Positions 3,611 to 23,956 of a stretch of DNA of 64,000 nt are shown here, piece after piece. The first letter of the stretch is position 1. Each line of letters starts with the position of its first letter. The stretch is from positions 2,560,001-2,624,000 of the forward strand of contig OZ244207.1 of NCBI GenBank assembly GCA_965216875.1, written 5' to 3'. The translations under genes were made by a program, and so were the position numbers. The notes beneath the pieces are model-generated. The model was not told where the DNA came from. It ran no database searches and saw only the letters and a program-made list of their open reading frames with translations. This DNA is from Rubripirellula sp. Lineage in GTDB: Bacteria > Planctomycetota > Planctomycetia > Pirellulales > Pirellulaceae.

Positions 3611-3774
3611 ATCAATGCTGACCGGCGGTGGTACGAATCAGCAAAAAACGTATCGTGATGTCCCGCCAATGGAAACACCACCTTGGCAAAGTTTATGATG
3701 GGCCGCCTAATCACGACCACTTGTAACCCACCTCACACCTCGCTTACCAACCTCAACCACGTCACAAGAACAAC

Positions 3775-4815
3775 ATGAGCATCGGAATCGGAATCGTCGG
3801 CTGCGGCATGATCGCTAATTTTCACGCCAAAGCGATCAAGGACGCCCAAGGAGCCGCATTGGTGGGATGCACCAGCCGCAATCCAGAGGGTGCCGCTGAG
3901 TTTGCCAAAACACACGGCTGCAAGAGCTTCGCGAGCCTCGAGGAAATGTTGGCCGACCCCGAAATTGACGCGATCACCATTTGTTCGCCGAGTGGCGCAC
4001 ACCTTGATCCCGCACTCGCGGCAGCCAAGGCGGGTAAGCACGTGATGGTCGAAAAACCTCTCGAAATCACCACCCAACGGTGTGACCAAATCATCAAGGC
4101 TTGCGAAGAAGCGGGCGTAAAACTGGCCGTCACCTTCCAGAGCCGATTCCATGAATCGAGCCAACTGATGAAAAAAGCAGTCGACGATGGCCGCTTTGGC
4201 ACCGTCACCATGGGCGATGCTTACGTCAAGTGGTATCGCAGCCAAGAGTATTACGACAGCGGCGCGTGGCGCGGCACGTGGTCCCTCGACGGCGGCGGGG
4301 CGCTGATGAACCAAGCGATCCACTCCGTCGATTTGTTGCTTTGGTTGATGGGACCGGTCGATCAAATCAGTGCCATGACCGCCACGATGACACACGAGCG
4401 CATCGAAGTCGAAGATGTCGCCGTCGCCAACCTCAAGTTCAAATCGGGCGCTCTCGGCGTGATCGAAGCAACGACGACGGCCTACCCCGGAGCGCTTAAG
4501 CGGATCGAAGTCAGCGGAGCCAAAGGAACGGCGGTCCTCGAAGAAGAAGACATCCACACCTGGCAATTCGAAGACGAAACCGACGAAGACGCTGCCATAC
4601 GCGAGAGGATGGCAGGAAAGACCGACACCGGTGGTGGTGCGGCCGATCCGGCCGCGATTGGTCACCACGGCCACACGATGGTCTTTGAAGACTTTGTCCA
4701 AGCAATCAACAACGACACGCAACCGCTGATCAATGGCCATGAAGGTCGCCGCAGTGTTGAGGTGATCTGCGCGATCTACGAAAGTGCCAAGACGGGAACA
4801 ATCATCCAGTTGTAG
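3775..4815 (+). CDS. Gfo/Idh/MocA family oxidoreductase
   Basis: GIVGCGMIA Rossmann motif, HVMVEKP, GGGALMNQAIH. Confidence 0.92.
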   Translation: MSIGIGIVGCGMIANFHAKAIKDAQGAALVGCTSRNPEGAAEFAKTHGCKSFASLEEMLADPEIDAITICSPSGAHLDPALAAAKAGKHVMVEKPLEITTQRCDQIIKACEEAGVKLAVTFQSRFHESSQLMKKAVDDGRFGTVTMGDAYVKWYRSQEYYDSGAWRGTWSLDGGGALMNQAIHSVDLLLWLMGPVDQISAMTATMTHERIEVEDVAVANLKFKSGALGVIEATTTAYPGALKRIEVSGAKGTAVLEEEDIHTWQFEDETDEDAAIRERMAGKTDTGGGAADPAAIGHHGHTMVFEDFVQAINNDTQPLINGHEGRRSVEVICAIYESAKTGTIIQL

Positions 4816-4830
4816 TTGGCAGATTGGTTG

Positions 4831-4882
4831 TGGTGCGTGCAAGCACAGCACCCTACATGTAGCGTGTGTGCTTGCACGCACG
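4831..4882. repeat. Inverted pair of GTAG-tagged REP-like palindromes, family C (GTAG(G/C)GTG..TGCTTGCACGCAC)
   Basis: Copies at 4831-4856 (minus) and 4859-4882 (plus), between convergent genes. Third copy at 34271-34295. Confidence 0.8.
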
Positions 4883-4902
4883 ACAAGTCTATCTGGCGAT
4901 CG

Positions 4903-5514
4903 TTACCACAGCGTCTTGTTGGCGCGCTGCGGCCACTCGTCATCGTAAGCTTGGCCACCGACTCGATCCCCCGATAGATTCGCGAGGATCTGCCCGGCCG
5001 TTGGTAGTGTTGCGGGGTCGATGTGCTTGTCTGAGTTCCACAAATCACTCCGGACAATCGCGCGAGCACACTGGAAATAGACTTCGTCGACCTTGGCGAC
5101 GATCACACACCGCGGACCTTTACCGTCGACTTCATAGGACGCCAATAATTCCTCATCGACGCTGAGTGTTGCCTTCGCGTTGACGCGCAGCGTGTTTCCG
5201 CATCCTGGCAAAAAGAACAGCAGCGCGATCCGCGGATCACGAACAATGTTCCTTAGCGAATCAACGCGATTGTTGCCGCGCCGATCAGGCAGGTGCAACG
5301 TTTTGTCGTCGACAACACGCACGAATCCTGCAAAGTCACCTCGTGGCGAACAATCGAGTCCTTCCGGCCCGCAAGTCGCCAAGGCGAGGAAAGGGGACGC
5401 ATCGATGTACGTCCGATAGTCGTCGGTAACATGTGCGGTAACCTTAACCGTCGACGTCTCGCCCGGCGCTCCGTAGATCTGTTCAAGTTGTTCAATCGAG
5501 TCAATCGTTGGCAT
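4903..5514 (-). CDS. Pyridoxamine 5'-phosphate oxidase-like FMN-binding protein (MSMEG_1061 type)
   Basis: DCSPRGD..GFV, LPDRRGNNRVDSLRNI, YFQCARAIVRS. Confidence 0.88.
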   Translation of the reverse strand: MPTIDSIEQLEQIYGAPGETSTVKVTAHVTDDYRTYIDASPFLALATCGPEGLDCSPRGDFAGFVRVVDDKTLHLPDRRGNNRVDSLRNIVRDPRIALLFFLPGCGNTLRVNAKATLSVDEELLASYEVDGKGPRCVIVAKVDEVYFQCARAIVRSDLWNSDKHIDPATLPTAGQILANLSGDRVGGQAYDDEWPQRANKTLW

Positions 5515-5663
5515 AGCTTACGTGTTGCATCGTTGGGCAAAGTGGGTCCGCTATCGAACACCGAGACCAAACATTCTACGCGGGTTCGCACTCAAAACAG
5601 CCGCTATCGTCGACGAATGTTTAGCGGCACGATCAATGCCCCTAAACGCGCCCAATGCACTCA

Positions 5664-5861
5664 GCGTAGGCCGGATCAAGGAGCGACAGCGACGCGGATC
5701 CGGCATCTTCACTCTTCGCAGCCACCTCCGCCAGAAGCTGAATTCCATCGCCACCCCGTATCTAAAACGCACCACGCTCTGGCGAGCGTAACTACCAACG
5801 CACACGGCGTAGGCCGGATCAAGGAGCGACAGCGACGCGGATCCGGCATCTTCACTCTTCG
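5664..5861. repeat. Composite REP-like array: family A (GTAGGCCGGATCAAGGAGCGACAGCGACGCGGATCCGGC) twice, flanking a reverse family B element (GTAG(C/T)TACGCTCGCCAGA(G/A)CGTGGT)
   Basis: Identical ~55-bp direct repeats at 5664-5718 and 5807-5861. B element at 5771-5795 on the minus strand. Confidence 0.88.
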
Positions 5862-5876
5862 TCACGTGTCGCGTTA

Positions 5877-6521
5877 CTAGCCGAGCTCGCCCAACTGCTG
5901 GCGCAGCCTTCGCAGCACTCTGCTTTTGGCCTGCCGAACGGAAGCTGCCGAAATGCCTAGCTCCTCGGCAATCTGAGCTGTGGGCTGGCCAAGCACCGTC
6001 GCTCGCCAAAACGCATCCCAGGTCGTCGATCGAAACTCGACCCGGACCATTGCCATGGCTCGGTGCAGCAGCGCCGCCGTTTCACTGGCTTCACTGGGGG
6101 CCTCATCGGGCAAGAGCGGATCGGCCACTTCGGCAAGGTAGCGCATTGCCGTGGAACCACCGCGACCATCGGTTTCCGCACTGGCCGCGCGAAAGTGGTC
6201 TCGAATCTTGTTCTTCGTGATCATCCAAACCCAACCGCGAAATCCGGCCGTTTCGTGGCGATATTCAAAACGATCGATCGATCGATGAATCGCTAAGAAC
6301 ACGTCCTGCAACACATCAGGGATTCGATGCTCAGGGACCTGACATTGCAAACACCACGACCGAGCAAGCGGTGCATAAAGATCCACGAGCCGCTGCCACG
6401 CGTCATCGCTACCGCCGCGCAGCTCACACAACAGACTTTCGCTTGATCCATGTTCCTGAGCGTTTGCGGTCGATTCCAACGTGTTTTTCTCGGTTTGAGG
6501 CGTGCACACAGTATGCACCAT
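5877..6521 (-). CDS. ECF sigma-70 factor (planctomycete kinase-associated type); true start may be TTG at 6479
   Basis: Region 2 (AWQRLVDLYAPL...DVLQDVF...FRGWVWMITKNKIRD) and region 4 (IAEELGISAASVRQAKSRVLRRLR). Confidence 0.92.
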   Translation of the reverse strand: MVHTVCTPQTEKNTLESTANAQEHGSSESLLCELRGGSDDAWQRLVDLYAPLARSWCLQCQVPEHRIPDVLQDVFLAIHRSIDRFEYRHETAGFRGWVWMITKNKIRDHFRAASAETDGRGGSTAMRYLAEVADPLLPDEAPSEASETAALLHRAMAMVRVEFRSTTWDAFWRATVLGQPTAQIAEELGISAASVRQAKSRVLRRLRQQLGELG

Positions 6522-6526
6522 TTTTT

Positions 6527-6551
6527 TGTCACACGTCGCCGTTGTTACGTC
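6527..6551 (+). promoter_or_regulatory. Candidate ECF-type promoter (TGTCACA-N14-CGTC) upstream of the kinase
   Basis: Motif lies in the ECF/kinase divergent spacer and resembles TGTCACA/CGTC ECF promoters. Spacing is shorter than the ECF41 consensus. Confidence 0.3.
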
Positions 6552-6621
6552 TGGCGAGAATTAGACCCGCCCTGCGACAACCCCTTTTCCTCCGAACGTC
6601 CATTACCGTCGAGAGACAGGC

Positions 6622-9600
6622 ATGATTTGCTTGACCCGAGAAGAGATCGCCGACTATGTCCAAGGCAGATTGCCCGAACCCGAATCCGAATCGGCCGAAA
6701 GCCACTTGGAAAACTGCCCCAAATGCCAGCAGACCGCCGAGCAGCTGGACGCCCACAGCGACTCACTCTTGCGCCACTTAAAGGTCGCGCCCGAACCAGC
6801 CCCCAGCAGCGACACCTGGCGCGCCTGCCTGGCAAACCTCCGCGACCTGCCAAGCCAAGGTGATGCCGTCCAAGAGCCCGCCCCGTCGATGGACGAAGTC
6901 CTGCGGCCAACCGAGGTGTATCACTATCGACTCGAGCAGCCCCTTGGCCGGGGCGGAATGGGAGTGGTCTATCGCAGTTGGCACCCGCAACTGCATCGCC
7001 CGGTCGCGATCAAAATTCTGAACGCATCACGTTCGGCCGACGAAGCGTCCATCGCGCGGTTCCAACGTGAAATGCGCGCCGCAGGCGGCCTCGATCATCC
7101 AGGCATCGTTCGTGCTGTCGATGCCGGCTATTGGAAAGGGACCTACTATCTCGTGATGGAGCTAATCGATGGCGTCGATCTCTCACGATTAGCTCGCCAT
7201 CTCGGCCCACTTGATGTCCGCGATGCTTGCGAGATCATCGCGCTGGCTGCCGATGCAGTCGAGTTCGCCCATCAACACCAAATCATCCATCGCGACCTCA
7301 AGCCTTCTAACCTCATGCTTGCCACCGATGGCAGTGTCAGAGTGCTCGACTTTGGATTGGCACGCTTTCAATCGAGCGGCTTCGGCGCCGACGCAACCAC
7401 CGCCGGCCGATTGGTTGGAACGCTCGACTACTTGTCGCCCGAACAAGCTTCTGGTGACGGCCAGCTCGACGCACGCAGCGATCTCTACGCACTCGGTGCA
7501 ACTCTCTTTCGATTGCTCGCTGGACGCCCACCCCATGGTTCAAGCAAGAACCGACCGGTCCTTCAACATCTTCAAACGGTCGCAACCTGCGAACCGCCAC
7601 GGCTAACCGAGATCCGTTCCGACCTTCCCGAAGAATTAGTCGAACTGGTTGCAAACATGCTCGCAACCGATCCCGACGCGCGTCCGAAAACCGCTGCCGA
7701 AGTGGCGAAATCACTTCGAGCGTTTTCCAACGACGCCGATCTTGCCAAGCTCGCAACCGAAACAATCGCGAATGCGCCGACCGGTGCCCCAACTCCCTTT
7801 CCCTCCGACGTTGTTTCGGAGGTCAATCCTCCATCTGCCCCCGCAAAAGCACCGCCGGGCTCCAAACGCGGGCTGTTGGTTGCCTGCGCGAGTCTCTTCG
7901 TTGGGCTTGCGATCGGCTTGGGCGCGATCACGCTGTTCCTGAAAACGGGCGAGGCAACCGTCGAAATCGAATCGGACATCGATGACGTCTCACTTGAGCT
8001 GATTCGGGATGGAAAGGTTGCCCAATCCGTCGAACTAAAGACAGGAACCAACACGTCGGTCGTTCGCGTCGGCAAATATGAACTCAAAATCGGTGCCGGC
8101 AGCGACCGAGTACGTTTGGATCAAGAGTCCTTCGAACTCATGCGAGGCGATCACCGCATCGTTCGCGTGACGATGGATCCATTGAACGAACCAGCGTCGC
8201 CCCCCCTTATTCCCGACGCAAAGGCGGTTGCCCTCGATTCAGCTGCGACCGTTGCCGCTTACCTTGAGCAATCACAAAAGACGCTCGACGCATTGCTGGA
8301 GCAGTTTCCTCCTGATCATCCGACCGTCGTCTCAGAAAAACGCAAGTTGGAATCAGCGCAAAACGAACTGATGCAGATTGTCCTGGGTCAGGAACCGGAC
8401 GAAGAGACAAGTCGAGGGCGCACCTACAAGGAATGGACCAACATTGTTCTCCGCGAAACGGACCCTCGCACGATTGTCGACGCGATCGGCTCCCTGGCAT
8501 CGCTAAGCAAACCTTCGCGGCATGACCAAACCATCGAAACGCTGATCAAAATCGCGGCGTCCAACGAACAACGAACCGAAAAGCTTATCGAGTCCTACAT
8601 CGCCACCGTCGCTCCCGATGCGAACTCGTACATTTGGGGACAGCTCTTTCCTGCACCGTCGAATGAATGGGCACTGGTAACCGATGCGATCATCGATGCG
8701 ATCGAAGGCTTGCCGTACGAAACGCAACAAGCGGCCTATGCCAAAGCGGCCTTTGGCAACGACGCGACCGCGAAGCGTTTGCTCCTCATGCTCGCGATCC
8801 GCAACGTCAGCCTCGAAAAGCAACGTTACCTTCCGCATGTTCAGCGACTTTGTGACAGCGAACAACCCGATGACGTTGCGGCGCTGGCACACTTTGCTTC
8901 ACTTCACGCCTATGAACAACCTGTCGGCGACCAGCAAGTCGTCGCGATACAGAGCGACAACATGATGCTTAAGAAAGTTGTTGCTGCGACCATGTTAAAA
9001 ACATCGCGAATCGGCAGTGGCGCCGAACTCGGTCGAGCCTGCGCCGAATTAGAATTCGCGGGAGCGCACATGGGATACCTGATCGGGAACTTGGTTCAAC
9101 TCTCTGTCTCCGATCCCAACGCATTTGATGGTTCGTCAGAAGCGGTCTTGCTCGAAGTGATGGCCAGCGAAACCATTCGCAGATGGGAAGACGCTGAAGA
9201 TGATGCCGATGCGATCAAGGTTGGCGGCATTAGCCCTACCGGCATCAACTATGTGCAGATGATCGCGACAGCCGATCTTCTTGAATCCGAAACGGTTGCA
9301 CGTGCGAGTAAGTTTTTGCACCAACATTTAAACAGGCAACTCAATAAACGCGCATCCCTTCCCAACCCCGAAGCATTCGGCGACGATTCGCCTTGGCTTC
9401 TCTACACAGTCAAGACGCTCGCAGCACTTGACGGCAAGCTCCCCGCGCAGCTCGAGGCCCAACGGATCGATCTGAAATCGAAGCAGGGACAGGCGTTTGC
9501 GAGCTGGTCGGAAAAACTACGCAGTGGAGATGCCGACGCGTCCGACAAAACATCCATTTGGATCGTTCAATTCCCCCTTGAAGCGTTCGAGGTGATCGCA

Positions 9601-10554
9601 GAGGCCTCTGGCGAAAAGCTCAAGACCGATGCTCCAAGACAATTCTTATTGGCGATGCGAGGTTCACGAACACGCATTCGCATGCTCGACGCGGTCGACC
9701 TCGGACTGGCCATTCCGCTTCTCGCCCACATTGCTTCTCGGGCTGACAGTGCCCCTTCCGATCCCGAACGAGCCAACCCGCTTGAATCAGCCGGTCGGGT
9801 CGGCGCGTACCTCTTCGAAAACGCGATGGACCGTGGGATCGACCAATTGTCCGTCGAGCTGCCCGTCAAACAATTTTCGAGCCAACTTCTTGCCATCGCC
9901 GAAAACGACAGTTTCTACCCAGCGCGCGGTATGGCGCTTCGATTGGCTCAAACGGGAGGATCCAGCAACGCTGAAATCGTTGAAGTCGTACGCAAACGTT
10001 TCCTCAGCACCGACGTCGATCCTGAGACGCCATTGAAATGGTCCGACTCGCACGAGTTCGCCTGGATGGTTGACTGCCTCGCCGAAGCGAACCCGTCAAA
10101 CCTTACCGCAGAAGAACTCTCCGCGCTCAGCACGCTTACGCTTAACGCAGAATTCCCACCGGTCGGGGGCAAAGATATCGAAAGAACCTACCTCGCAATG
10201 CTCAAGCTGCACCACGAAGGGAACAATATCGACTCGTCAGTGATCATGGCCGCCTTGGGCCAGCGAACAGGAAAGTCGCGACCGCGATGGCCATCCACCA
10301 GCGTCCGTTCGCGTCAAGCGAGCTCAGGCCCAACCGCACTCGCCGTCATTTCATCAGGCGTTCCCGTTCCCGTCGTGGCCGCAGCGCTAGAGGCGATCAT
10401 CCAGAACCCGCCGAGAAGCGAGCCGCTTCGTGACCTTTTGATCTCGAAGCAAAAGCGAATGGTGAGTCTGAACTTCACCGATTTCGAAGTTTCAGAAACG
10501 CTGATTCGTGCGATCAATCGAATCGAACGCGAACTAGCCCGAAGCAAGCCGTAG
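6622..10554 (+). CDS. Membrane-anchored Ser/Thr protein kinase with N-terminal zinc anti-sigma (ZAS/zf-HC2) motif and long extracytoplasmic C-terminus
   Basis: HLENCPKC (HxxxCxxC), [38 protein letters not shown], and TM helix [22 protein letters not shown]. Confidence 0.93.
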
Positions 10555-10638
10555 GCCGGATCAAGTAGCGACAGCGACGCAGATCCGGCAGCTCCATTTC
10601 ACATAGCTAAGCGACCACGTTCTGGCGAGCGTAGCTAC
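10551..10638. repeat. REP family A (10551-10589, +) plus family B (10614-10638, -) heterodimer
   Basis: GTAGGCCGGATCAAGTAGCGACAGCGACGCAGATCCGGC followed by ACCACGTTCTGGCGAGCGTAGCTAC. Same arrangement as 5666-5795. Confidence 0.85.
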
Positions 10639-10657
10639 GGGTGGATCATCTCAGCAC

Positions 10658-11410
10658 CTAGCTCGCGCCGTTGAAAATCATGATGCACGAAACGAGCACC
10701 AGCGACGCGGCGACGATACGTTTGAATCGTTGGCCCTTGATGTAGCGGCTCGCCCACGCGCCAAGTTGAACGCCCACGATCGCAAACGGAGCGGCGAGGA
10801 GTGATTGTGTCACCATTTCGCCAGTCACAAGCTCGTCATCCAGAAACATCACGACCGCCTTGTAACAGGCGATGACGAGCAAACATTGAGTCACGAATGC
10901 TTTGAACTGAGCCTGAGACCAATCTTGTTTGAGAGCGAAAGCGGCAACCGGTGGTCCAGCGATGCTGACGGCGCCGGCAAGAAAACCACTCGCTGCTCCG
11001 GCAGCAAAACAAGACAACTTCGAAGTCGATTCCTGTTTCGCGTCCGCCGTCTTGCGAAGACTCAACAAAACCATGGCCAAGATCGCGACGCCCGTTCCAC
11101 GCACCAAGAGGTCGAGTGGAGCGTGCAAAAAGGCCCACAGACCGGGTGGCAGGAAGAGCAGCGCACCCAACATCGACAACCGTAGCGATGGCCACTGGAT
11201 GCCTTCGCGGTACGCCCATGCAGCCATGATCAACATCGGAACACTCGAAAGACTGATCACGACATGCGCCGCCTTGATGTCCAACAGGAAAGGCATCACC
11301 GAGAGAGCAACGATACCAAACCCGAAGCCGATGGCGCTGTGCACGAAGCCAGCGGCAAACGCAACGACGGCGATTCCAGCGAGTGTGGTGAGGGTTTCGC
11401 CGTCAAGCAC
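10658..11410 (-). CDS. TauE/SafE family sulfite exporter-like membrane protein
   Basis: 250 aa, about 8 TM. AGFVHSAIGFGFG and SGFLAGAVSIAGPP repeats. GTG start overlaps the MFS stop by 1 nt. Confidence 0.88.
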   Translation of the reverse strand: MLDGETLTTLAGIAVVAFAAGFVHSAIGFGFGIVALSVMPFLLDIKAAHVVISLSSVPMLIMAAWAYREGIQWPSLRLSMLGALLFLPPGLWAFLHAPLDLLVRGTGVAILAMVLLSLRKTADAKQESTSKLSCFAAGAASGFLAGAVSIAGPPVAAFALKQDWSQAQFKAFVTQCLLVIACYKAVVMFLDDELVTGEMVTQSLLAAPFAIVGVQLGAWASRYIKGQRFKRIVAASLVLVSCIMIFNGAS

Positions 11411-12801
11411 TACTCAGGCAGCTCCGCGCCACGCGTTTCTTTCGCAAACAGGACGACGATCACACCGAGCAGGAAGAGCCAGCTCAGCAGCGACGCCGCT
11501 TCTTCGAGCGAGTAGCCAAGCCCGCCATCTGCTTCAGGCCGCTGCATCCAACCGGTCAACAGCAACATCGGAAACGTGACCAATCGGCCCATATTGAAAC
11601 AGAAACCAGCGCCCGTTCCTCGCAAACGCGTGGGATACAACTCGGGAAAGTAAACGGCGTACCCAGCATGCATCCCCAGTGTCAGGAAACCAAAGATCGG
11701 CAGCGTGATCCAAATCAAAGCGAGCGACGCCCCGCCGCCAACGATGTACTTGAAAAAAACGAGGGCAACAATCAACGCTCCCAGGTGATAGAAGACGAAG
11801 GCGCCTTTTCTTCCCAACCGATTCGAAATCCATCCGAACAGCAGCAGCCCAATCCCGCCGCCGGTCGTGTTGACGAACATACTCAGCATCTCGGCCCGTT
11901 TAATGTCGCCCGCTTTCTCCTTGAACACCACTTCCTTTTCTTCGTCTGTCGCATCAACCCCGAGCCCCGCTTCGGCCAAGACTTCGGCCCGTTTCTTCGA
12001 CATCAACGCGTTCTTGCCGTAGATGTGCGCGCCCCAAAACGTGGCCAAACCGATCGTCGCAAGCGAAACACCCACGAGCGTGTTGCGGAGATTCTGTGAG
12101 TTGAAGAGCTCGATGATGCTGCCCGTCTTCTCCTGCGGATTCTCCGCCGCCCGTTCCTTCGCTTTGACCCATTGCTCGGGTTCATGAAGTTTCCAGCGAA
12201 TCCAAACAGTAAGCAGCGCCGGGACAACACCGATCAAGAAACCGAGCCGCCACGTGTTTTCGCCCCACGGGCTCGCTGCAATCACAAAGAAACCGACCAA
12301 CGTTGCCAGGTAAGTCCCAAACACACTTGATGCGTGAAAGATGGATCCCATCACCGCGCGAGACCGTTGCGGCATCACCTCGGCAACCATCGCCGACGCG
12401 ACCGCCCATTCACCGCCAACGCCCATGGCGACAAAGAATCGAAGCACAACCATGTGCCACGCTTCGCCCGCAAACGCGGTGACGCAAGTGAACAACGAGT
12501 AAAACAAGATCGTGATGATCATTGTCTTGGAGCGCCCAATCCGGTCACTTAGCATGCCAAAAAAGACACCACCAATGGCACCGCCCAGCAAGAACGATCC
12601 GAGTGCGACGTTATTCCAAAAACGAACGATTCCATCCTCGGCATCGCCGAGCAATTGCGGCATCGCATCACGCATGGACGCGACAAAGATCTGGCCTTCG
12701 AAAACATCAAAGACCCAGCCGAGCGATGCGATCAGAAGCACCAGCCATTGGTACTTGCTGATCCCTTCATTCCATTTCAGAGGTTGCGAATCGTTGCTCA
12801 C
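11410..12801 (-). CDS. MFS transporter (sugar/organic-acid-like)
   Basis: LGWVFDVFE, SDRIGRSKT motif A, GVGGEWAVA, PELYPTRLRGTG. Confidence 0.92.
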   Translation of the reverse strand: MSNDSQPLKWNEGISKYQWLVLLIASLGWVFDVFEGQIFVASMRDAMPQLLGDAEDGIVRFWNNVALGSFLLGGAIGGVFFGMLSDRIGRSKTMIITILFYSLFTCVTAFAGEAWHMVVLRFFVAMGVGGEWAVASAMVAEVMPQRSRAVMGSIFHASSVFGTYLATLVGFFVIAASPWGENTWRLGFLIGVVPALLTVWIRWKLHEPEQWVKAKERAAENPQEKTGSIIELFNSQNLRNTLVGVSLATIGLATFWGAHIYGKNALMSKKRAEVLAEAGLGVDATDEEKEVVFKEKAGDIKRAEMLSMFVNTTGGGIGLLLFGWISNRLGRKGAFVFYHLGALIVALVFFKYIVGGGASLALIWITLPIFGFLTLGMHAGYAVYFPELYPTRLRGTGAGFCFNMGRLVTFPMLLLTGWMQRPEADGGLGYSLEEAASLLSWLFLLGVIVVLFAKETRGAELPE

Positions 12802-12877
12802 GGGACAAGTTTTGCCAGGTAGGAGTGGGTGGTTGGGAGGGCGTCGCTCGCGGCAGCGAACTGAGACAGGTTAACCG

Positions 12878-13903
12878 CTACGGCGACGGCGTGAAGGATT
12901 GCATCTGCATTTCTGCCAGAGAAGCGACCACCTTCCGCTGGCCGCTGAACGGGCGCCGCGCATGCATCGCAATGGTGTTGTCGACGATTGCAACGTCTCC
13001 AGGTTGCCACTGCAAATCAAACGCAATCTCCTCGGCAAGCGTCACAGCAACGCCCACCGCATCGGCATCGAGAGGCGAACCGTCGCCGTGGCAAATCGAC
13101 TTTGAGGGATCATTTCGCGAGTCTTTCCAACCACAAAACGCGGCAATGAGCTGGTTGAAAAAGACTTTGCGTCCCGGCTGAACTTCGACCACAGCGGGCA
13201 AGGGCGGGGTGGTCGCACGCAAACATCCATCCTCTTGCCACTGCCACGTGTATCCAAGTTCGCCCAAGCGTGCCTCGGCTTCTTCTCTGGTCGTCACACC
13301 GAGCGTGCTTTTCCAGCTGCGCCCCATCCCCGATTTTGCATCATCGCTATCGGGCATCACGTTGCTGTAGCAGAGACCAAGTCGCTCACACTTTGCAGCA
13401 AATTCAGGATTCGCTTCGACGAGTTTCTCGAACAGAACGTCGGAACGACAAAGCGGCGTCGCACCACCGGTCTCGGGCGCGACTTCACACGAGAACATGA
13501 TCCACTTCGGGAACAGGGGCGTTTGAGCCATCTCGTGATGAAAGAAAATTTGAACGTTCGCCGGAGCCTCGTTCGCTGAAAAAACGCGTTCCGTCCGATT
13601 CACGCGAACCGCATTGGACAGCGACTTCTTGTAAGGAAAATTTGCCAGCTGCAGAGCCTGGATGATCCGATCGAACCCCTCAGCGCCATCAACCGGAAAG
13701 TCACGCAACAAAATCGCCCCATGCTCGGTCGCATGTGCCAATAGAAGCTCGCGTTTCGCTTCCACCCAGCCTGCAGCGTCGTCAATCGAGATTGAATCAT
13801 CGCGGTTGACCATCACGTACGGAAAGACGCTGCCGCCGTATCGCTGCTGGCCATCAACCGCAACCGTCTCGATCGCCAATGAATCTATGTCGCTAGTGGT
13901 CAT
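12878..13903 (-). CDS. Fe(II)/2-oxoglutarate-dependent dioxygenase, TauD/TfdA (clavaminate synthase-like) family
   Basis: HGAILLRDF, FFHHEMAQ (HxE), GGATP, DNTIAMHARRPF (distal His and Arg). ATG at 13903 lies just after the AKR stop. Confidence 0.9.
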   Translation of the reverse strand: MTTSDIDSLAIETVAVDGQQRYGGSVFPYVMVNRDDSISIDDAAGWVEAKRELLLAHATEHGAILLRDFPVDGAEGFDRIIQALQLANFPYKKSLSNAVRVNRTERVFSANEAPANVQIFFHHEMAQTPLFPKWIMFSCEVAPETGGATPLCRSDVLFEKLVEANPEFAAKCERLGLCYSNVMPDSDDAKSGMGRSWKSTLGVTTREEAEARLGELGYTWQWQEDGCLRATTPPLPAVVEVQPGRKVFFNQLIAAFCGWKDSRNDPSKSICHGDGSPLDADAVGVAVTLAEEIAFDLQWQPGDVAIVDNTIAMHARRPFSGQRKVVASLAEMQMQSFTPSP

Positions 13904-13913
13904 GCCGAGCCGC

Positions 13914-14891
13914 CTACTCGTAAATGGGAAAGAAAGTGTTGAACGCCGCTTCGCAAAAGTCACCGGGATCGTTGAAACGACGATTTCGATTGAGCGCCGA
14001 GATCGATTGCATCTGTTGATCGGTCAATGCAAAGTCAAAGATGGCAAGGTTCTCTTTGAGTCGTTCAGTGCTTGTCGTCTTAGGAACAATGGAAGTCCCA
14101 CGCTGAACGCCCCAACGCAAAAGGACCTGAGCCGCAGTTCGACCGTGGGCCGACGCGATTTCGTTGATCACCGGATGCTGCATCAACGACTCGTTCTGCT
14201 GAGCCATGTTCAATTGAAAGTAGGATTGCGCTCCTAGCGGCGAAAACGCCGTCACCGCGATCGAAGACTCGCGACAAAACCGAACCAGCTTTTCCTGAGT
14301 CAGATAAGGATGCATCTCGACTTGCAACACGGACGGAGCAATGTCCGCCTGATTAATCAGATCTCGCAACAGCGAACACCCAAAGTTGCAAACTCCGATT
14401 TCCTTTACCAAGCCGGCGCGAACCAACTCTTCCATCGCTTGCCATGTCTCGATGATCGGAACACGATCGGGAACCATCACCGGATTGTCCGCATCCGGGT
14501 CGGTAAACCAGCCCGGCGGGTAGCGTTGTTCGAAAGGAACGAACTGCGATGCAATCGGAAAATGCATCAGGTAAAGATCAAGGTAATCGAGCTGGAGATC
14601 GGCCAGCGTCTTTTCGAGTGCAGGACGCACATGCTCGGCACGATGGTAGGTGTTCCAAAGTTTCGAAGTGATCCATAAATCATCTCGGGACACTTTGCCC
14701 GAATGGATTGCGGCCGAGAGCCCGGCGCCCGCTTCGGTTTCGTTGCCATAATCACAGGCGCTGTCGAAATGGCGATACCCACAATCGATGGCGTCTTGAA
14801 CGACCTGGGTCACTTTTTCGTTTTCGATCTTCCAAAGGCCAAGGCCAACCGAAGGAAGCTGGCGACCACTGGAGAGTGTGAGAGAATCCAT
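13914..14891 (-). CDS. Aldo/keto reductase (xylose/aldose reductase-like)
   Basis: VGLGLWK, GYRHFDSACDYGNE (Asp/Tyr), ITSKLWN (Lys), LYLMHFP (His), VPKT. Start MDSLTLSSG at 14891. Confidence 0.93.
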   Translation of the reverse strand: MDSLTLSSGRQLPSVGLGLWKIENEKVTQVVQDAIDCGYRHFDSACDYGNETEAGAGLSAAIHSGKVSRDDLWITSKLWNTYHRAEHVRPALEKTLADLQLDYLDLYLMHFPIASQFVPFEQRYPPGWFTDPDADNPVMVPDRVPIIETWQAMEELVRAGLVKEIGVCNFGCSLLRDLINQADIAPSVLQVEMHPYLTQEKLVRFCRESSIAVTAFSPLGAQSYFQLNMAQQNESLMQHPVINEIASAHGRTAAQVLLRWGVQRGTSIVPKTTSTERLKENLAIFDFALTDQQMQSISALNRNRRFNDPGDFCEAAFNTFFPIYE

Positions 14892-14970
14892 TGTCTCGTC
14901 TTGCTGAGGGGTGGGTGGAAGGTGTAGCTGTGGTGGGATTTTAGCGGACCGGATTCTAGCGAACTCGACC

Positions 14971-16113
14971 CTAGCGTTCAGGCGTCTCGGGTTGCCATGA
15001 CTGGACGGCGCCGCCGGCGGCACCAAGGGCCCCGACGTCCTCTTGCAGGGTCGACGCGACAACCTCGGCAGGCTGTCCAAGGTGTTCGGGCGAAAGTGAT
15101 TGAAAGGTGCTTCGCAGTGGTTCAAGGAACTGAGTTTCAAGCGTTGCCAGGGGCCCAGCAACGATCACGCGTTTTGGACGCAACAACATCGACGCCTGTG
15201 CCACAACGCTGCCAACCGCCGCGGACGCTTCGCGAAGCAATCGACAAACGAGAGCATCCGACTGTTGCGCAGCCAGTAACAACTGCCGAGTGCTCACCGT
15301 CCCGTGACGCACTTTGGCGATCGATTCCTTTCCATTGGAAATCGCATCCGCGACTCGGTCGCAGATCGCTCGTGTCGAAGCGGCCTCCTCAAGCGTCGAC
15401 TTTCGCACCGGCCAACAACCGATTTCGCCCGCCGTGTTTCCCGTTCCCCGGTAGAGCTTGCCGCCAACAAAGACGCCCGAGCCGATGCCGCTGCGGATGC
15501 CCAAACAAAGAAAATCTTCAACGTCACGGCCTTGGCCAAACCAGCGTTCGGCCAGCGCGATCGCGCGGATGTTGTTTTCCAAAAACACAGGAACACCAAA
15601 CCGCTCGCTTACCGAATCGACCACCGGTACATCATCCCAGTCGCGAATGAAACGGTAGTTTCGCGCGGTACCGCCTGCCAAATCAATGACGCCCGGGACG
15701 GCAACGCCGATCCCGAGTAAAGGTCGCGAGCGGCGGCGGACGGCAGCGATCAGGCTGCGAATATGACCGAGCACGTCCGCCGACGTCGCGTTCTTTCGGA
15801 GCGTTTGGCTTGCGCTATGGAGCGGTTGCTGTGCAAAATCGACTGAAATCGCGCGGACCTGCTCGGCGTCCAAATCCACGCCAATGAACTGGCCAGCCTC
15901 GGGATTGAGTTCCAACAGCGTTCGCGGCCTTCCCGATCCAGCCTTCGCTTGCGCCCCCTCTCGCAAATACCCGCCACGCACCAATCGATCGACGTGAATG
16001 CCGATCGTCGATGGTGCAATCTGCAAACGCCTGGCAAGGTCGACGCGCGAAATGCCATCGCACAATCGAATCTGATGGATCACTGATGATTCAACAGCCA
16101 GCTTCACGTTCAC
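14971..16113 (-). CDS. ROK family transcriptional repressor (NagC/XylR-like)
   Basis: N-terminal wHTH (ISRVDLARRLQIAPSTI...GRP), then ROK domain (GVDL, GIGVAVPG, LENNIRAIALAE, GIGSG, AGEIG). Start is approximate. Confidence 0.9.
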   Translation of the reverse strand: MNVKLAVESSVIHQIRLCDGISRVDLARRLQIAPSTIGIHVDRLVRGGYLREGAQAKAGSGRPRTLLELNPEAGQFIGVDLDAEQVRAISVDFAQQPLHSASQTLRKNATSADVLGHIRSLIAAVRRRSRPLLGIGVAVPGVIDLAGGTARNYRFIRDWDDVPVVDSVSERFGVPVFLENNIRAIALAERWFGQGRDVEDFLCLGIRSGIGSGVFVGGKLYRGTGNTAGEIGCWPVRKSTLEEAASTRAICDRVADAISNGKESIAKVRHGTVSTRQLLLAAQQSDALVCRLLREASAAVGSVVAQASMLLRPKRVIVAGPLATLETQFLEPLRSTFQSLSPEHLGQPAEVVASTLQEDVGALGAAGGAVQSWQPETPER

Positions 16114-16146
16114 CAAGCCGCTTGAGGGAGAAACTCGTTGCCCACT

Positions 16147-16175
16147 ATCTTTATTTCGATTTCGAAATATGTCAA
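16147..16175 (-). promoter_or_regulatory. Sigma70-type promoter (perfect TTGACA at 16175-16170) with palindromic operator TATTTCGA-TT-TCGAAATA (16152-16169) in the spacer
   Basis: Perfect 8-bp inverted arms in an AT-rich patch between the divergent ROK and Gfo/Idh/MocA genes. The -10 element is weak (TAAAGAT). Confidence 0.7.
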
Positions 16176-16240
16176 GATGGCGAGACGTTTTTTGTGGTCT
16201 CGTGTAGGCTTTGCCGTTTTGCACAATGAGGGTCAAAGGG

Positions 16241-17287
16241 ATGAGCGACGCGCCATTGCGATTTGGTTTGGTTGGTTTCGGTGCTTGGGGCGGCCATCAC
16301 GCCAACGCGATCACGGTCACGGAAGGAGCCGAGTTGGTTGCGATCTCGGCCCAGAGCGAATCGTCACGAACCCGCGCGCAGGAAACCTATCCCGACGCGG
16401 ACGTCTATGCCGACTTTCGTGAATTGGTCGCACGCGAGGACTTGGATTTTGTGGATGTGGTGGTGCCAAGTCATCTGCATCACGAAGTTGCGATGGCGGT
16501 CTTGGCCAGCGGCAAAAACCTGATGCTCGAAAAACCGATGGGCGTCACTCTTGGGGAGTGTGACGACATGATCCGGTTGGCACGAGAAAAGAACGCCTTG
16601 TTCGCGGTGGGCCACGAGCTTCGACTTTCGTCGATGTGGGGCAAGGCCAAAGCAATGATTGACGAAGGCTTTATCGGCACACCCCTTTATGCTCTCGTCG
16701 AGCTTTCGCGGAATCCCTATCGGCAGGGCGCTGACGGGTGGCGTTACGACATCGACCGTGTCGGCAGCTGGATCTTGGAAGAACCGATTCACTTCTTCGA
16801 TTTGGCACGCTGGTATTTGTCAGCCTCAGGCGATCCGACCTCGATTTACGCGACCGCGAACTCACGGCAGCCAGATCACCCGGAATTGCACGATAACTTC
16901 AGCGCGATCATGCATTTCGAAAAAGGAGCTTACGCCGTCGTTTCGCAAACGCTGGCCGCCTTCGAACACCACCAAACGATCAAGGTGACTGGAACGACCG
17001 GTGCTCTTTGGGCATCGTGGAGCGGTGCGATGGACCGCACGCGACATCCCACCTTTTCACTGCGCGCCTTTGACGGCGACCAAGTCACCACTGTCCCGAT
17101 CGACAAGCCCACCGGCGAATTGTTCGAGCTGGAGGACCAGATCGCTCAGCTGGTTGCCGCGGTGCGTCGCGGCGAACCCCTTCACTGCAGCGGCGAAGAC
17201 GGTCGCTGGTCGGTTGCCATGTGCCTGGCAGCCGAAGATTCAGTCAGGTCGGGTGCAACGGTCGCGATGAGCGAGTATCTTGCTTAG
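16241..17287 (+). CDS. Gfo/Idh/MocA family sugar dehydrogenase
   Basis: GLVGFGAWG, LMLEKPM, GSWILEEPIHFFD. ATG at 16241. Confidence 0.9.
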   Translation: MSDAPLRFGLVGFGAWGGHHANAITVTEGAELVAISAQSESSRTRAQETYPDADVYADFRELVAREDLDFVDVVVPSHLHHEVAMAVLASGKNLMLEKPMGVTLGECDDMIRLAREKNALFAVGHELRLSSMWGKAKAMIDEGFIGTPLYALVELSRNPYRQGADGWRYDIDRVGSWILEEPIHFFDLARWYLSASGDPTSIYATANSRQPDHPELHDNFSAIMHFEKGAYAVVSQTLAAFEHHQTIKVTGTTGALWASWSGAMDRTRHPTFSLRAFDGDQVTTVPIDKPTGELFELEDQIAQLVAAVRRGEPLHCSGEDGRWSVAMCLAAEDSVRSGATVAMSEYLA

Positions 17288-17327
17288 GACCTTTCGCATC
17301 CCCAAAATCGTTTCGTCCAAGAATTTC

Positions 17328-17434
17328 GTAGGGGACGAAGCCACGGGTCCATCAGCACCATCATCCCGAGACTCCCGGCTCCTTCAAACCAACACGGATC
17401 TTGCCTGGCAAGAACTCGTAGCCTAGCCCACGAC
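17328..17434. repeat. Degenerate inverted pair of REP family D
   Basis: GTAGGGGACGAAGCCACGGGTCC (17328-17350) and reverse GTCGTGGGCTAGGCTACGAGTTC (17412-17434). Each has about 4 mismatches to the copies at 51736-51856. Confidence 0.6.
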
Positions 17435-17464
17435 ATCCTTTCCCTCCCTCGTTGCGACGCCCCC

Positions 17465-18385
17465 ATGAGACCGTTCCTCGCCCTCCTGATCCTGTTCGGT
17501 GTTTCCGCAAACCTCGTTGCAGAGCCGATCGCCAAAAAGAAACTCATCCTCGTCGCTGGCAAACCGTCTCACCCGCCGCGAATGCATGAATTCAACGCGG
17601 GCGTCCAATTACTTACCAAGTGCCTCGCCGAAAACGAGGCGGTCGAGACCACCTTCGTTTTGAATGGTTGGCCAAAGGACGAAGCGATTTTCAATGATGC
17701 CGATGCGGTCGTCTTTTTCATGGACGGAGGCAAGCGACATGAAGTGGTCCAAGAGGACGGTCGACGTCTCAAACTGCTCGACCAATGGGCGAAAAAGGGC
17801 GTTGGCTTGGGTTTCATGCACTATGGCGTCGAAGTGTTGGCCGATCAAGCTGGCTCTGAAATGAAACGCTGGATCGGCGGTCACTACGAGCACATGCACT
17901 CCTGCAATCCGATTTGGGAACCGAACTTCGCGGTGCTGCCAGACCATGAAATCACTCGGGGCGTCAAACCCTTCCAAATCAAAGACGAGTGGTACTTCAA
18001 CATGCGGTTTATTGGCGACTCGGCGGGCAACCAAGTGGACAACTTTGACAACGACATGAAGTTCGTTCCGATCCTGTTGGCAGTTCCTTCCCAGAAAGTT
18101 CGCAACGGCCCGTACGTGTACCCGAAAGGTCCCTACGCACACATTCAGGCATCCAAAGGTCGCGCCGAGGCGGTGATGTGGACGGTCGAACGTGCCGATG
18201 GCGGTCGCGGACTCGGTTTCACTGGCGGACATTTCCACGACAACTGGGGCAACGATGACTATCGCAAAGTGGTCCTCAACGGTCTGGTCTGGTTGACCGG
18301 CGCCAACGTTCCCGATGGCGGCGTCGCATCGAACGTCGATCAAGCGGATCTCGACGCCAACCTCGACAAAAAGAACCGTCGCTAG
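17465..18385 (+). CDS. Secreted ThuA-like (class I glutamine amidotransferase-like) domain protein
   Basis: Signal peptide, LVAGKPSHPPRMHEFNAG, DEWYFNMRF, GFTGGHFHDNW. Confidence 0.85.
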   Translation: MRPFLALLILFGVSANLVAEPIAKKKLILVAGKPSHPPRMHEFNAGVQLLTKCLAENEAVETTFVLNGWPKDEAIFNDADAVVFFMDGGKRHEVVQEDGRRLKLLDQWAKKGVGLGFMHYGVEVLADQAGSEMKRWIGGHYEHMHSCNPIWEPNFAVLPDHEITRGVKPFQIKDEWYFNMRFIGDSAGNQVDNFDNDMKFVPILLAVPSQKVRNGPYVYPKGPYAHIQASKGRAEAVMWTVERADGGRGLGFTGGHFHDNWGNDDYRKVVLNGLVWLTGANVPDGGVASNVDQADLDANLDKKNRR

Positions 18386-18399
18386 GGCGTTGCGTCACC

Positions 18400-18533
18400 G
18401 TAGGCCGGGTCAAAGAGCGATGCCGATCCGGCACTTCCATTCTTGGTGCATTTTTTGTCGCCTTTCGCTCCGCGAAAGCAGCGCCCGAAAACGCGCCGTC
18501 TGCAGCAAGATTCCGGCTAAAGCTCGGTACTAC
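18400..18533. repeat. Mosaic of three different palindromic repeat types
   Basis: Family A variant at 18400-18433; GTCGCCTTTCGCTCCGCGAAAGC hairpin at 18457-18479; reverse GTAGTACCGAGCTTTAGCCGG at 18513-18533. Lies between convergent genes. Confidence 0.65.
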
Positions 18534-21982: not shown

Positions 21983-23869
21983 ATGACGGCCCAAACCACT
22001 TCGAAAAACGTCCAGTCGGTCTCAGGAATTACGGTTCGACTCGCGGGCGACTCTGGGGACGGCATGCAATTGCTCGGCACCCAGCTGACCAACACCAGCG
22101 CGCTTGCCGGCAACGACGTCGCCACGTTTCCTGACTTTCCAGCCGAAATTCGAGCTCCGCGCGGCACCCGTGCCGGCGTCTCGGGCTTTCAGGTCCAATT
22201 CGCCAGCGAAGAAATCTTCACGCCGGGCGATATCCTCGATGCGCTGGTGGTGATGAACCCTGCCGCGATGGTCACCAACCTTGGTGATTTGCGCAAGGGA
22301 GGCATTTTGATCGCCAACGAGGACGGCTTTAACGACAAAGAATTCAAGCTGGCCAAGGTCGAGAGCAACCCGCTTGAAGACGAAGTCCTCGAGTCGACCT
22401 ACCGCGTGGTCAAAGTCCCGATGACTCGATTGACCCGCGATGCGGTGGCCGAGTTCGGATTGGGCTCGAAGATCGCCGATCGCTGCAAGAACTTCTTTGC
22501 CATGGGAATGGTCTATTGGCTGTTCGGCCGTTCCCTCGACCCAACCCTTCGCTTCATCAACCAGAAGTTCGGCAAGAAACCCGAGGTCGCTGCGGCAAAC
22601 GAAGCAGCCCTCCGCGCCGGATGGGCCTACGGTGAAACGACCGAAGAGTTTGGCGAGAGCTACCAGGTGACCGCGGCCCAACTCGAGCCTGGCACCTACC
22701 GCAACATCATGGGCAACCAGGCACTTGCCTGGGGACTGATCGCAGCATCCAAACTGAGCGACAAGGATCTCTTTTACGGGACCTACCCGATCACGCCTGC
22801 CAGCGACATCCTGCACGAACTGACCAAGTACAAGAACTTTGGCGTTCGCACCTTCCAAGCCGAAGACGAAATCGCGGCGGTCTGTGCGACGATCGGTGCA
22901 GCGTTCGGCGGAACGATGGGCGTCACGGCCAGCAGCGGACCTGGCATCGCGCTCAAAGGCGAGGGCATGGGTCTGGCGATGATGCTCGAGCTTCCGATGA
23001 TCGTCATCAATGTCCAACGTGGTGGTCCCAGTACCGGCTTACCGACCAAGACCGAACAGAGCGATTTGCTTCAAGGCATGTTTGGCCGCAACGGTGAAGC
23101 GCCGATGCCGGTGCTTGCACCTCGTTCGCCTGGCGATTGCTTTGACATGGCCATCGAAGCTTGGCGAATCGCAACCGAGTGCATGGTTCCGGTCATGCTG
23201 CTTTCGGACGGCTACATCGCAAACGGAAGCGAGCCATGGCGAATCCCGCAAATGGACGAACTGAGTAAGATCGAGGTCAAGCACCCTGAAGGGACAGATC
23301 CCGACGAACCGTTCATGCCGTACGCACGCGACGAAAACCTCGCGCGACCTTGGGCGATCCCTGGCACACCTGGGCTGATGCACCGAGTCGGTGGCCTCGA
23401 AAAAGAAGACGGATCGGGTAACGTTTCCTACGACCCCGACAACCACCAGCACATGACCAACACACGTGCTGACAAGGTTGCCAAGATCGCCGACCGAATT
23501 CCCGAGCAGGACATCTTCGGCGATTCCAGCGGCGACGTCCTGGTCGTTTCTTGGGGCGGTACCTATGGTGCCTGCCACACGGCGGTTCGGCGCTGTCGCG
23601 AAGCAGGGCACAGCGTTTCGCACGCCCACATTCGCTACCTCAATCCCTTCCCCAAGAACCTAGGCGAAATGCTCCGCTCGTTCGACAAAGTCGTCGTGCC
23701 CGAGTTGAACACGGGACAATTGCGAATGCTGCTGCGATCCGAATTCCTGGTCGATTGCATCGGCTTCAACAAAGTCCAAGGCAAACCCTTCCGCGTGACC
23801 GAACTGGTCGAAGCGATTGAATCGCACGTTAAGCCAGCGACCGTCAAGCAAACCAGCAAAGCAGGCTGA
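21983..23869 (+). CDS. korA: 2-oxoacid:ferredoxin oxidoreductase alpha subunit (fused gamma-alpha)
   Basis: AGDSGDGMQL, YPITPAS, QAEDEIAA, QRGGPSTGLPTKTEQSD. Confidence 0.93.
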   Translation: MTAQTTSKNVQSVSGITVRLAGDSGDGMQLLGTQLTNTSALAGNDVATFPDFPAEIRAPRGTRAGVSGFQVQFASEEIFTPGDILDALVVMNPAAMVTNLGDLRKGGILIANEDGFNDKEFKLAKVESNPLEDEVLESTYRVVKVPMTRLTRDAVAEFGLGSKIADRCKNFFAMGMVYWLFGRSLDPTLRFINQKFGKKPEVAAANEAALRAGWAYGETTEEFGESYQVTAAQLEPGTYRNIMGNQALAWGLIAASKLSDKDLFYGTYPITPASDILHELTKYKNFGVRTFQAEDEIAAVCATIGAAFGGTMGVTASSGPGIALKGEGMGLAMMLELPMIVINVQRGGPSTGLPTKTEQSDLLQGMFGRNGEAPMPVLAPRSPGDCFDMAIEAWRIATECMVPVMLLSDGYIANGSEPWRIPQMDELSKIEVKHPEGTDPDEPFMPYARDENLARPWAIPGTPGLMHRVGGLEKEDGSGNVSYDPDNHQHMTNTRADKVAKIADRIPEQDIFGDSSGDVLVVSWGGTYGACHTAVRRCREAGHSVSHAHIRYLNPFPKNLGEMLRSFDKVVVPELNTGQLRMLLRSEFLVDCIGFNKVQGKPFRVTELVEAIESHVKPATVKQTSKAG

Positions 23870-23956
23870 GCCTGATCGCAAACCAATTCACGCCGCTCAC
23901 GACGTGAATGCAAGCCACCAACACACCTCTACTTCCCAAGACTCGCGCTCAATCCG

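Follow-up and report, generated by a model that had tools for sequence, protein, structure and literature searches.

What does an Fe(II)/2-oxoglutarate dioxygenase act on in a planctomycete gene cluster that also specifies a ROK regulator and a candidate sulfite exporter? The cluster in question lies in Rubripirellula sp. (Pirellulaceae; GenBank assembly GCA_965216875.1, contig OZ244207.1), in a stretch of 64,000 nucleotides (contig positions 2,560,001 to 2,624,000) that is hereafter called the window. Five co-directional genes encode a TauE-type exporter, a transporter of the major facilitator superfamily (MFS), the dioxygenase, an aldo-keto reductase (AKR) and the ROK regulator, and a divergent gene encodes an oxidoreductase of the Gfo/Idh/MocA type (P0006). 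The original prediction, made from the sequence, read the cluster as a possible new route for a sulfonated or sulfated sugar or polyol, with a logic of import, desulfonation, reduction and export. That logic is better supported than was then held, by the assignment of the dioxygenase to SqoD and by the Alteromonas type of the AKR. The core of the cluster very probably serves the desulfonation of sulfoquinovose (SQ) through the established sulfo-SDO pathway, in this case in a member of the Planctomycetota, because the dioxygenase reads as an Alteromonas-type SqoD and the AKR closely resembles the reductase encoded next to SqoD in an Alteromonas-type locus. Published work is cited by PubMed Central (PMC) or preprint number.

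The dioxygenase and its reductase

The best sequence match of the dioxygenase in the PDB is 9YUT (E 1.9e-74), an entry cited in the structure paper on the Marinobacterium aestuarii SqoD (MaSqoD; PMC12951627); the chain of this entry agrees with the sequence of MaSqoD. In MaSqoD, iron is bound by H115/E117/H308, and the SQ site consists of Q120, W253, M118 and the loop 84-93 (PMC12951627). The HxE motif of the original prediction is indeed present: H122/E124/H314 align with this triad, one residue off the H121/E123/H313 of the Alteromonas macleodii enzyme (AmSqoD), while Q127, W259, M125, Y91 and R100 correspond to MaSqoD Q120, W253, M118, Y85 and R92. The active-site loop is two residues longer than that of MaSqoD and, in a by-eye comparison, has SLSNAVR in common with AmSqoD. 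The latter, which shares 34% identity with MaSqoD, becomes 58-fold more abundant on SQ and converts this sugar to 6-dehydroglucose with release of sulfite (PMC12780224). An Alteromonas orthologue (P0238) is 53% identical to the dioxygenase of the window. Because MaSqoD is the closest solved relative, the metal and SQ side chains are kept, the loop is that of AmSqoD and the identity to the Alteromonas orthologue is high, we assign the dioxygenase with strong confidence to the Alteromonas subtype of SqoD, which by orthology would cleave the C-S bond of SQ. The earlier view of an enzyme unlike the known ones does not survive: SqoD itself is an HxE clavaminate-synthase-like protein (At3g21360-like), and this subtype has already been assayed on SQ.

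Escherichia coli TauD and Pseudomonas putida AtsK have the Fe/2-oxoglutarate desulfonation or desulfation chemistry and PF02668 in common with the dioxygenase, without sequence kinship at E 0.001, the threshold at which TauD is absent from its PDB matches. Membership of the TauD/AtsK group was rejected on this ground, and since the neutral SQ site is kept rather than a cationic sulfonate clamp. MaSqoD itself is about 16% identical to TauD and binds the sulfonate differently (PMC12951627).

Fungal xylose reductases are the best PDB matches of the AKR (E 1.5e-94). The reductase for which Ye et al. report assays is SquF/SmoB, MaSquF being 52% identical to SmoB (PMC10507154). The window AKR is ruled out as a SquF/SmoB orthologue, with 24% identity to the SmoB orthologue of a Ruegeria cluster, which itself matches 7BBY/7BC1 at E 7e-122. 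Its identity reaches 58% with the AKR encoded directly upstream of SqoD in L062 (6029-6991; homologous loci carry L numbers), an Alteromonas-type locus with the gene order of A. macleodii, including the GH31 gene. The xylose-reductase-like character seen by the original prediction thus stands, but it is not new to the pathway, as an AKR of this type occurs upstream of SqoD in 64 of the 80 Alteromonas-type loci. The A. macleodii gene labelled SquF, directly upstream of SqoD, is 56-fold up on SQ (PMC12780224). Judging from L062, the reductase so labelled in Alteromonas-type clusters is probably xylose-reductase-like, and so not a SquF/SmoB orthologue; two unrelated AKR subfamilies would then probably serve the sulfo-SDO pathway under one name. 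Its position and the induction of the Alteromonas gene by SQ lead us to predict that the AKR of the window is a 6-dehydroglucose reductase.

We found SqoD in 37 of 151 host-family genomes and in 10 of the 201 genomes that represent the phylum; a SmoC-like monooxygenase, 51% identical to that of the Ruegeria smo-type cluster, occurs in 7 of the 151, and one or the other gene in 43 family genomes. Around close homologues of the dioxygenase (61 loci, mostly Pirellulaceae and partly redundant, related genomes not being independent), we found the MFS gene 47 times, the AKR 44, TauE 30 and ROK 11 times. The 44 Gfo matches at these loci include weak matches to other Gfo proteins; given enough flank, true P0006 orthologues number 33 of 44, the AKR 35 of 44, the MFS gene 41 of 53 and TauE 26 of 53. 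The arrangement is thus conserved, with TauE lying near the dioxygenase in about half of the loci.

This last figure counts against our reading of the core, as do the loose tie of the AKR to the oxygenases (26 of the 43 oxygenase genomes of the host family versus 24 of the 108 others), the Arabidopsis protein At3g21360, of unassigned function, which comes next in the PDB search with a score nearly equal to that of MaSqoD (E 1.6e-70), and the pocket-lining M193 of the dioxygenase, which matches neither assayed enzyme (I186 in MaSqoD, Q in AmSqoD). A methionine at the equivalent position is also found in the dioxygenase of L059, beside a gene of the GH188 type. Planctomycetes degrade sulfated polysaccharides, and sulfatase genes lie close to some of the homologous loci; taken with M193, this might speak for a dioxygenase shifted to a sulfated sugar of algal polysaccharide or to a short sulfonate, the "new route" of the original prediction. 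We regard such a shift as very improbable. The 53% identity to the Alteromonas orthologue exceeds the 34% between the two assayed SqoD enzymes, MaSqoD rejects taurine, homotaurine, 2,3-dihydroxypropane-1-sulfonate and cysteinolic acid (PMC12951627), and SmoC-like genes stand in for the dioxygenase beside the same MFS and Gfo genes. On SQ, MaSqoD has a kcat/KM of about 10^2 per M per s.

A deviating context is seen in a verrucomicrobial record (L021:6897-9020), where a dioxygenase of 66% identity occurs without the MFS, AKR and Gfo genes, directly behind a gene that we take to encode a cysteine synthase; a use in sulfur assimilation is possible there.

The orphan Gfo and the absence of a sulfoquinovosidase

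A GH31 or GH188 sulfoquinovosidase is stated to be general in the described sulfo-SDO families (PMC12951627). The original prediction had noted that no sulfoquinovosidase is present in the window, and this holds genome-wide for both families. In the host genome (window contig, 8.26 Mb; completeness 99.09%), no GH31 protein was found (control positive in 6 of 14), SqgH had no match, and GH188 was absent, its best tblastn match being P0006 itself at 26%. Likewise, the 43 oxygenase genomes contain no GH31 above the Pfam cut-off (two matches lie below it) and no canonical GH188. Outside Planctomycetes, the Alteromonas subtype of SqoD is associated with sulfoquinovosidases of either known class, because it has GH188 neighbours and L062 includes GH31. 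The dioxygenase gene follows a GH188-type Gfo gene in L053 (where the AKR is absent and the Gfo matches GH188 structures at E 4e-104), L054, L055 and L059 (in these three as a pair with the AKR), and a further 80 loci include 12 with GH188 close to the dioxygenase.

P0006 occurs in 41 of the 43 oxygenase genomes versus 10 of the 108 other genomes of the family, and in 7 of the 10 SqoD genomes of the phylum sample. In several lineages (L046, L051, L156), the operon itself includes the P0006 orthologue; SmoC-Gfo-MFS units exist in L193 and L195, and in L183 the Gfo gene is divergent from SmoC-MFS. The divergent gene, treated by the original prediction as a side gene, is thus an uncharacterised part of the cluster that co-occurs with SQ oxygenases. 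As to the SmoC-like loci (L183, L193, L195, L206 and L220-L222), most are beside the same MFS gene as in the window; L206 carries SqoD and SmoC together, its SqoD operon having a different AKR, 37% identical to the SmoB orthologue.

P0006 was compared with GH188 using the residues and mechanism described for ArSqgA (PMC10755693, PMC11465081). K98, E180 and H184, invariant in 83 family members, correspond to GH188 K107, E189 and H193, which contact C3/C4, and R157 corresponds to the sulfonate-binding R166, with the following Trp also kept. R161, R168, H243 and H244 are likewise invariant, R161 and R168 being additional to the GH188 set; GH188 L170 is replaced by R161, and K172 by G163. Amongst the Foldseek matches listed for the P0006 model (pLDDT 93.7), the GH188 structure 8QC5 has the top TM-score (0.88, versus 0.85 for 2GLX). 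In a tree that was quick, with 37 rows and long outgroups, the P0006 clade is separate (support 94) and sister to GH188 plus an intermediate group (98), the join having 92. We rejected P0006 as a GH188 member, given about 25% identity, a place outside the GH188 clade and the lack of Y136, K172 and H321; no paralogue above about 30% was found in the host genome (tblastn), and by sequence P0006 and its orthologues form a family of their own. The intermediate group is exemplified by L218:1489-2538 and L219:1489-2541, the latter behind a threonine-synthase-like gene (PRK08197 type), a gene type also found behind the P0006 orthologue of L213 (12636-13862). Another Gfo/Idh/MocA-like gene, 27% identical to P0006, lies 6 kb from the cluster at about 3770-4810 of the window.

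A further context of P0006 is given by L187 (G743; 3651-14876). Here, a P0006 homologue heads an arm of genes for ROK, iron-dependent alcohol dehydrogenase, a split transketolase, RpiB and TauE; the opposite arm encodes MFS, a second Gfo and DUF1080, and the same operator stands between the arms. This genome (93% complete) is without SqoD and SmoC-like oxygenases; no isomerase is encoded in the locus, while PF02952 matches occur elsewhere in the genome. Iron-dependent alcohol dehydrogenase, transketolase, RpiB and TauE constitute the gene set of the sulfo-transketolase (sulfo-TK) pathway, in which 6-dehydroglucose does not arise (PMC9594981, PMC11659671). Genes of the kinds that serve stepwise glycoside cleavage via 3-keto sugars are found no more than 3 kb from the Gfo at 38 of 64 loci, versus 5% of random windows, a test biased by queries that came from Gfo loci themselves; the partners are variable and none is constant. 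DUF1080 or TIM-barrel neighbours occur in L012 and L156, L012 being the locus of a cultured carrier, Stieleria marina K23_9. The only candidate partner for stepwise cleavage in the window is the ThuA-like gene.

From these data, the following scheme is proposed. The MFS transporter would import SQ or an SQ glycoside, and P0006 would oxidise or reduce C3 of the imported sulfosugar, likeliest within glycoside cleavage by way of a 3-keto intermediate, either on its own or assisted by a lyase or hydratase. With O2 and 2-oxoglutarate, SqoD would then hydroxylate C6 and yield sulfite, 6-dehydroglucose, succinate and CO2, as shown for MaSqoD and AmSqoD. The AKR would use NAD(P)H to reduce the aldehyde at C6, giving glucose, TauE would export the sulfite, and ROK may repress both arms from an 18-bp palindrome located by conservation. 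We consider this complete scheme (SqoD, AKR, TauE and MFS, with the Gfo acting first) a likely explanation of the cluster.

As for P0006 taken by itself, we lean towards an action upstream of the oxygenase, freeing or forming SQ, because of its co-occurrence with the oxygenases, the absence of GH31 and GH188 from the 43 genomes, the SmoC-like and sulfo-TK-like contexts and the GH188 residues that it keeps. That it takes part in the cleavage of SQ glycosides is a tentative proposal, and some other role altogether appears unlikely. Equally tentative is the idea that P0006 represents a third class of SQ gateway enzyme, which would be NAD-dependent and free SQ from SQ-glycerol where GH31 and GH188 are absent. 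It might do so alone, via His243/His244, or as the C3 oxidoreductase of a stepwise route whose lyases are of the ThuA, DUF1080 or TIM-barrel kind, and the SQ would enter dioxygenase, monooxygenase and transketolase pathways alike; this, too, we would put at somewhat less than an even chance.

Several findings argue against an upstream role. P0006 lacks GH188 Y136 (L127 there), K172 and H321 (no His motif); the R166 equivalent is found in inositol dehydrogenases too, and the P0006 profile scores higher against inositol-dehydrogenase-like structures (123 bits) than against GH188 (112 bits). The sulfo-TK context is one locus, and the other 9 family genomes with the Gfo and without an oxygenase showed no close transketolase of that type (best, 35%). 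The strongest point is that 17 of the 43 oxygenase genomes have no AKR orthologue, 15 of these 17 having P0006, as would be expected if P0006 acted downstream. It would then reduce 6-dehydroglucose, the product common to SqoD and SmoC, to glucose, or oxidise it to a uronate (D-glucuronate by oxidation at C6, L-guluronate at C1), and the cells would use free SQ only. The SmoC-like loci L183, L193 and L195 have no adjacent AKR, P0006 is without the residues that are linked to glycoside cleavage in GH188, and SQ clusters that are thought to take up free SQ do exist (PMC10507154). Nevertheless, we hold a downstream role, although a serious rival, to be rather unlikely, as the sulfo-TK-like locus L187 would produce no 6-dehydroglucose, the MFS gene lies within 3 kb of P0006 in 9 of 19 loci away from any oxygenase, and in the 10 family genomes outside the oxygenase set that carry P0006 no oxygenase was found. 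Moreover, the AKR and P0006 are present together in 26 genomes, including the host, and where the orthologue is lacking there are many further AKRs that might take its place.

The GH188 residues kept in P0006 are the C3/C4-contacting ones only, and this would also suit an enzyme that converts another natural C6 sulfonate (an SQ epimer, an alditol or an amino-sulfosugar) to SQ or sulfofructose and so widens the substrate range. NagA-, NagB- or PIG-L-like genes adjoin P0006 homologues (L188:9157-10311, L184:3736-5415 and L174:8115-8984, respectively), the regulator is NagC-like, and the lack of an SQ isomerase in the L187 locus, with PF02952 matches elsewhere in that genome, could be taken in the same sense. 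A link to an N-acetylated sulfosugar is possible; the neighbours differ among the three loci, however, and may be there by chance. No such C6 sulfonate is named in the available parts of the relevant papers, and the missing sulfoquinovosidase would be left unexplained. We find such a conversion improbable, and an upstream role in freeing SQ is preferred.

Known systems and wider significance

The sulfo-SDO cluster of A. macleodii ATCC 27126 (sulfo-ASDO, MASE_17990-18035; PMC12780224) has the same SqoD subtype, a sulfur-export gene downstream and, as judged through L062 rather than from the MASE_18010 sequence, the same type of AKR upstream of SqoD. It differs in having a TonB receptor with a sodium symporter, YeiH with SorAB, GntR and the GH31 enzyme SqgH, where the window has MFS, TauE, ROK and no SqgH; the window adds the orphan Gfo and belongs to another phylum. 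With the clusters of M. aestuarii and Marinomonas ushuaiensis (PMC10507154, PMC12951627), the SqoD fold, the HxE triad, the Q/W contacts and the chemistry are held in common. Those clusters combine SquF/SmoB, a TRAP transporter, GH188 and a shorter loop, in contrast to the other AKR (24%), the MFS transporter, the absence of GH188 and the loop two residues longer found here.

The GH188 enzyme SqgA (PMC10755693) is NAD+-dependent, has the Gfo/Idh/MocA fold and occupies the same place as P0006, next to genes of several types of SQ-catabolic pathway. Stepwise non-Koshland cleavage (BT2156-2160 and P2B11; bioRxiv 10.1101/2024.03.25.586180) employs Gfo-type 3-dehydrogenases with sugar-phosphate-isomerase-like or DUF1080 lyases, and one such set slowly cleaves sulfoquinovosides; P0006 is remote from BT2158/BT2159 and P2B11. 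What is known, then, is the sulfo-SDO core, and what appears to be new is its occurrence in planctomycetes, the different transporter, exporter and regulator, and the orphan oxidoreductase where a sulfoquinovosidase normally stands.

A literature search, with subscription papers outside its scope, retrieved no study of SQ breakdown by Planctomycetes and none of the P0006 family. The string "Planctomyc" is absent from the available main text of two 2026 reviews (PMC13436972, PMC12890257) and of a 2025 marine survey (PMC12780224), as well as from five readable supplements of the survey and one of PMC13436972. Sulfo-SDO is listed for gammaproteobacteria only in the available text of PMC12890257, while the GH188 list of PMC10755693 includes at least one planctomycete protein. 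With SQ production of some 10 billion tonnes per year (PMC12951627), the distribution of SqoD would place planctomycetes that live with algae among the mineralisers of SQ. Surveys of SQ degraders lean on GH31 and GH188 genes; if P0006 were indeed a gateway enzyme, a third of the sampled Pirellulaceae-level genomes would be those of SQ-glycoside consumers invisible to surveys by sulfoquinovosidase markers. P0006 could yield a new class of sulfoquinovosidase or a new branch of 6-dehydroglucose metabolism.

According to the available text of PMC12890257, no SQ pathway has been characterised in eukaryotes. In an alignment with PDB entry 1Y0Z, At3g21360 has a loop of the MaSqoD type, together with the SQ-site residues (HxE, Gln and Trp); Lee et al. 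mention structural likeness only for this protein (PMC12951627, available sections), and plant GH188 proteins exist (PMC10755693). At3g21360 is a candidate plant SQ dioxygenase and, alongside plant GH188 and the likeness of the AKR of SqoD clusters to fungal and plant reductases, offers candidates for a eukaryotic SQ pathway.

Gene order, transport and regulation

The features of the locus are collected in Table 1. Five co-directional genes and a divergent Gfo gene are real and arranged as originally claimed, including the one-base overlap between the TauE start GTG (11410-11408) and the MFS stop TAG (11412-11410) and the 10-nt spacing (13904-13913) from the AKR stop to the dioxygenase ATG; the remaining gaps are 76 and 79 nt. 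The six open reading frames exceed the Pfam gathering cut-offs (TauE, MFS, TauD/TfdA, aldo-keto reductase, ROK and Gfo/Idh/MocA), while none of the six proteins reaches a curated NCBIfam cut-off. A tblastn search of the host genome gave a single match each for TauE, MFS, dioxygenase, AKR and ROK. Among named records, the closest homologues are from Pirellulaceae planctomycetes. In one algae metagenome run (X5; three contigs), an approximately 99% identical strain spans 10615-18485 with no listed insertions or deletions.

Table 1. Predicted features of the cluster (window coordinates; SQ, sulfoquinovose; HTH, helix-turn-helix).
Feature	Position	Strand	Basis and predicted role
TauE/SafE family exporter	10658..11410	-	PF01925, 99.9 bits; sulfite export predicted, substrate from context
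MFS transporter, anion/H+ symporter type	11410..12801	-	PF00083/PF07690; predicted importer of SQ or SQ glycoside
Fe(II)/2-oxoglutarate SQ dioxygenase SqoD, Alteromonas subtype (P0003, 341 aa)	12878..13903	-	TauD/TfdA Pfam; assigned by MaSqoD/AmSqoD comparison
Xylose-reductase-like aldo-keto reductase (P0004)	13914..14891	-	predicted 6-dehydroglucose reductase
ROK regulator, N-terminal HTH	14971..16113	-	PF00480, 130.7 bits; start GTG at 16113 or 16107
18-bp palindrome	16152..16169	.	predicted ROK operator for both arms; conservation across loci
Gfo/Idh/MocA oxidoreductase (P0006), unstudied family	16241..17287	+	predicted action on imported sulfosugar; not GH188
ThuA-like protein, hydrophobic N-terminus	17465..18385	+	PF06283, 48 bits; possible accessory lyase/hydratase, membership uncertain

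Aromatic-acid and sialate symporters are the best NCBIfam models for the MFS transporter, below cut-off. Its orthologues, besides neighbouring SqoD, lie beside SmoC-like genes (L183, L193, L195, L220 and L222) and also adjoin Gfo genes at loci without an oxygenase. The NagC/Mlc NCBIfam models match the ROK protein below cut-off. The palindrome has its sole perfect match in the 8.26-Mb genome at this site, with no further member at up to one mismatch; with up to two mismatches, it is found in 15 of 18 loci with a ROK gene, in 1 of 95 without, and in none of 80 gammaproteobacterial-type loci, the pattern having been drawn from the window and L009 and the loci being partly redundant, some fetched twice, and not independent. 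Because it tracks the ROK gene across loci, we take the palindrome to be a ROK-linked operator, and its conservation predicts that ROK binds there and that the two arms form one regulon.

The ThuA-like gene stands behind the Gfo gene in just 5 of the 61 loci and has two paralogues elsewhere in the genome (tblastn). At 21983-24967 of the window, 4 kb past the cluster, two genes presumably encode subunits of a 2-oxoacid:ferredoxin oxidoreductase; no conserved link with the cluster was seen. On the other side, at 5877-10554 and convergent with the cluster, there are what we take to be an extracytoplasmic function (ECF) sigma factor-like gene and a 1310-aa Ser/Thr kinase-like gene. Short repeats resembling repetitive extragenic palindromes lie on either flank of the cluster (10543-10640 and 18395-18500), where many unrelated contigs pile up.

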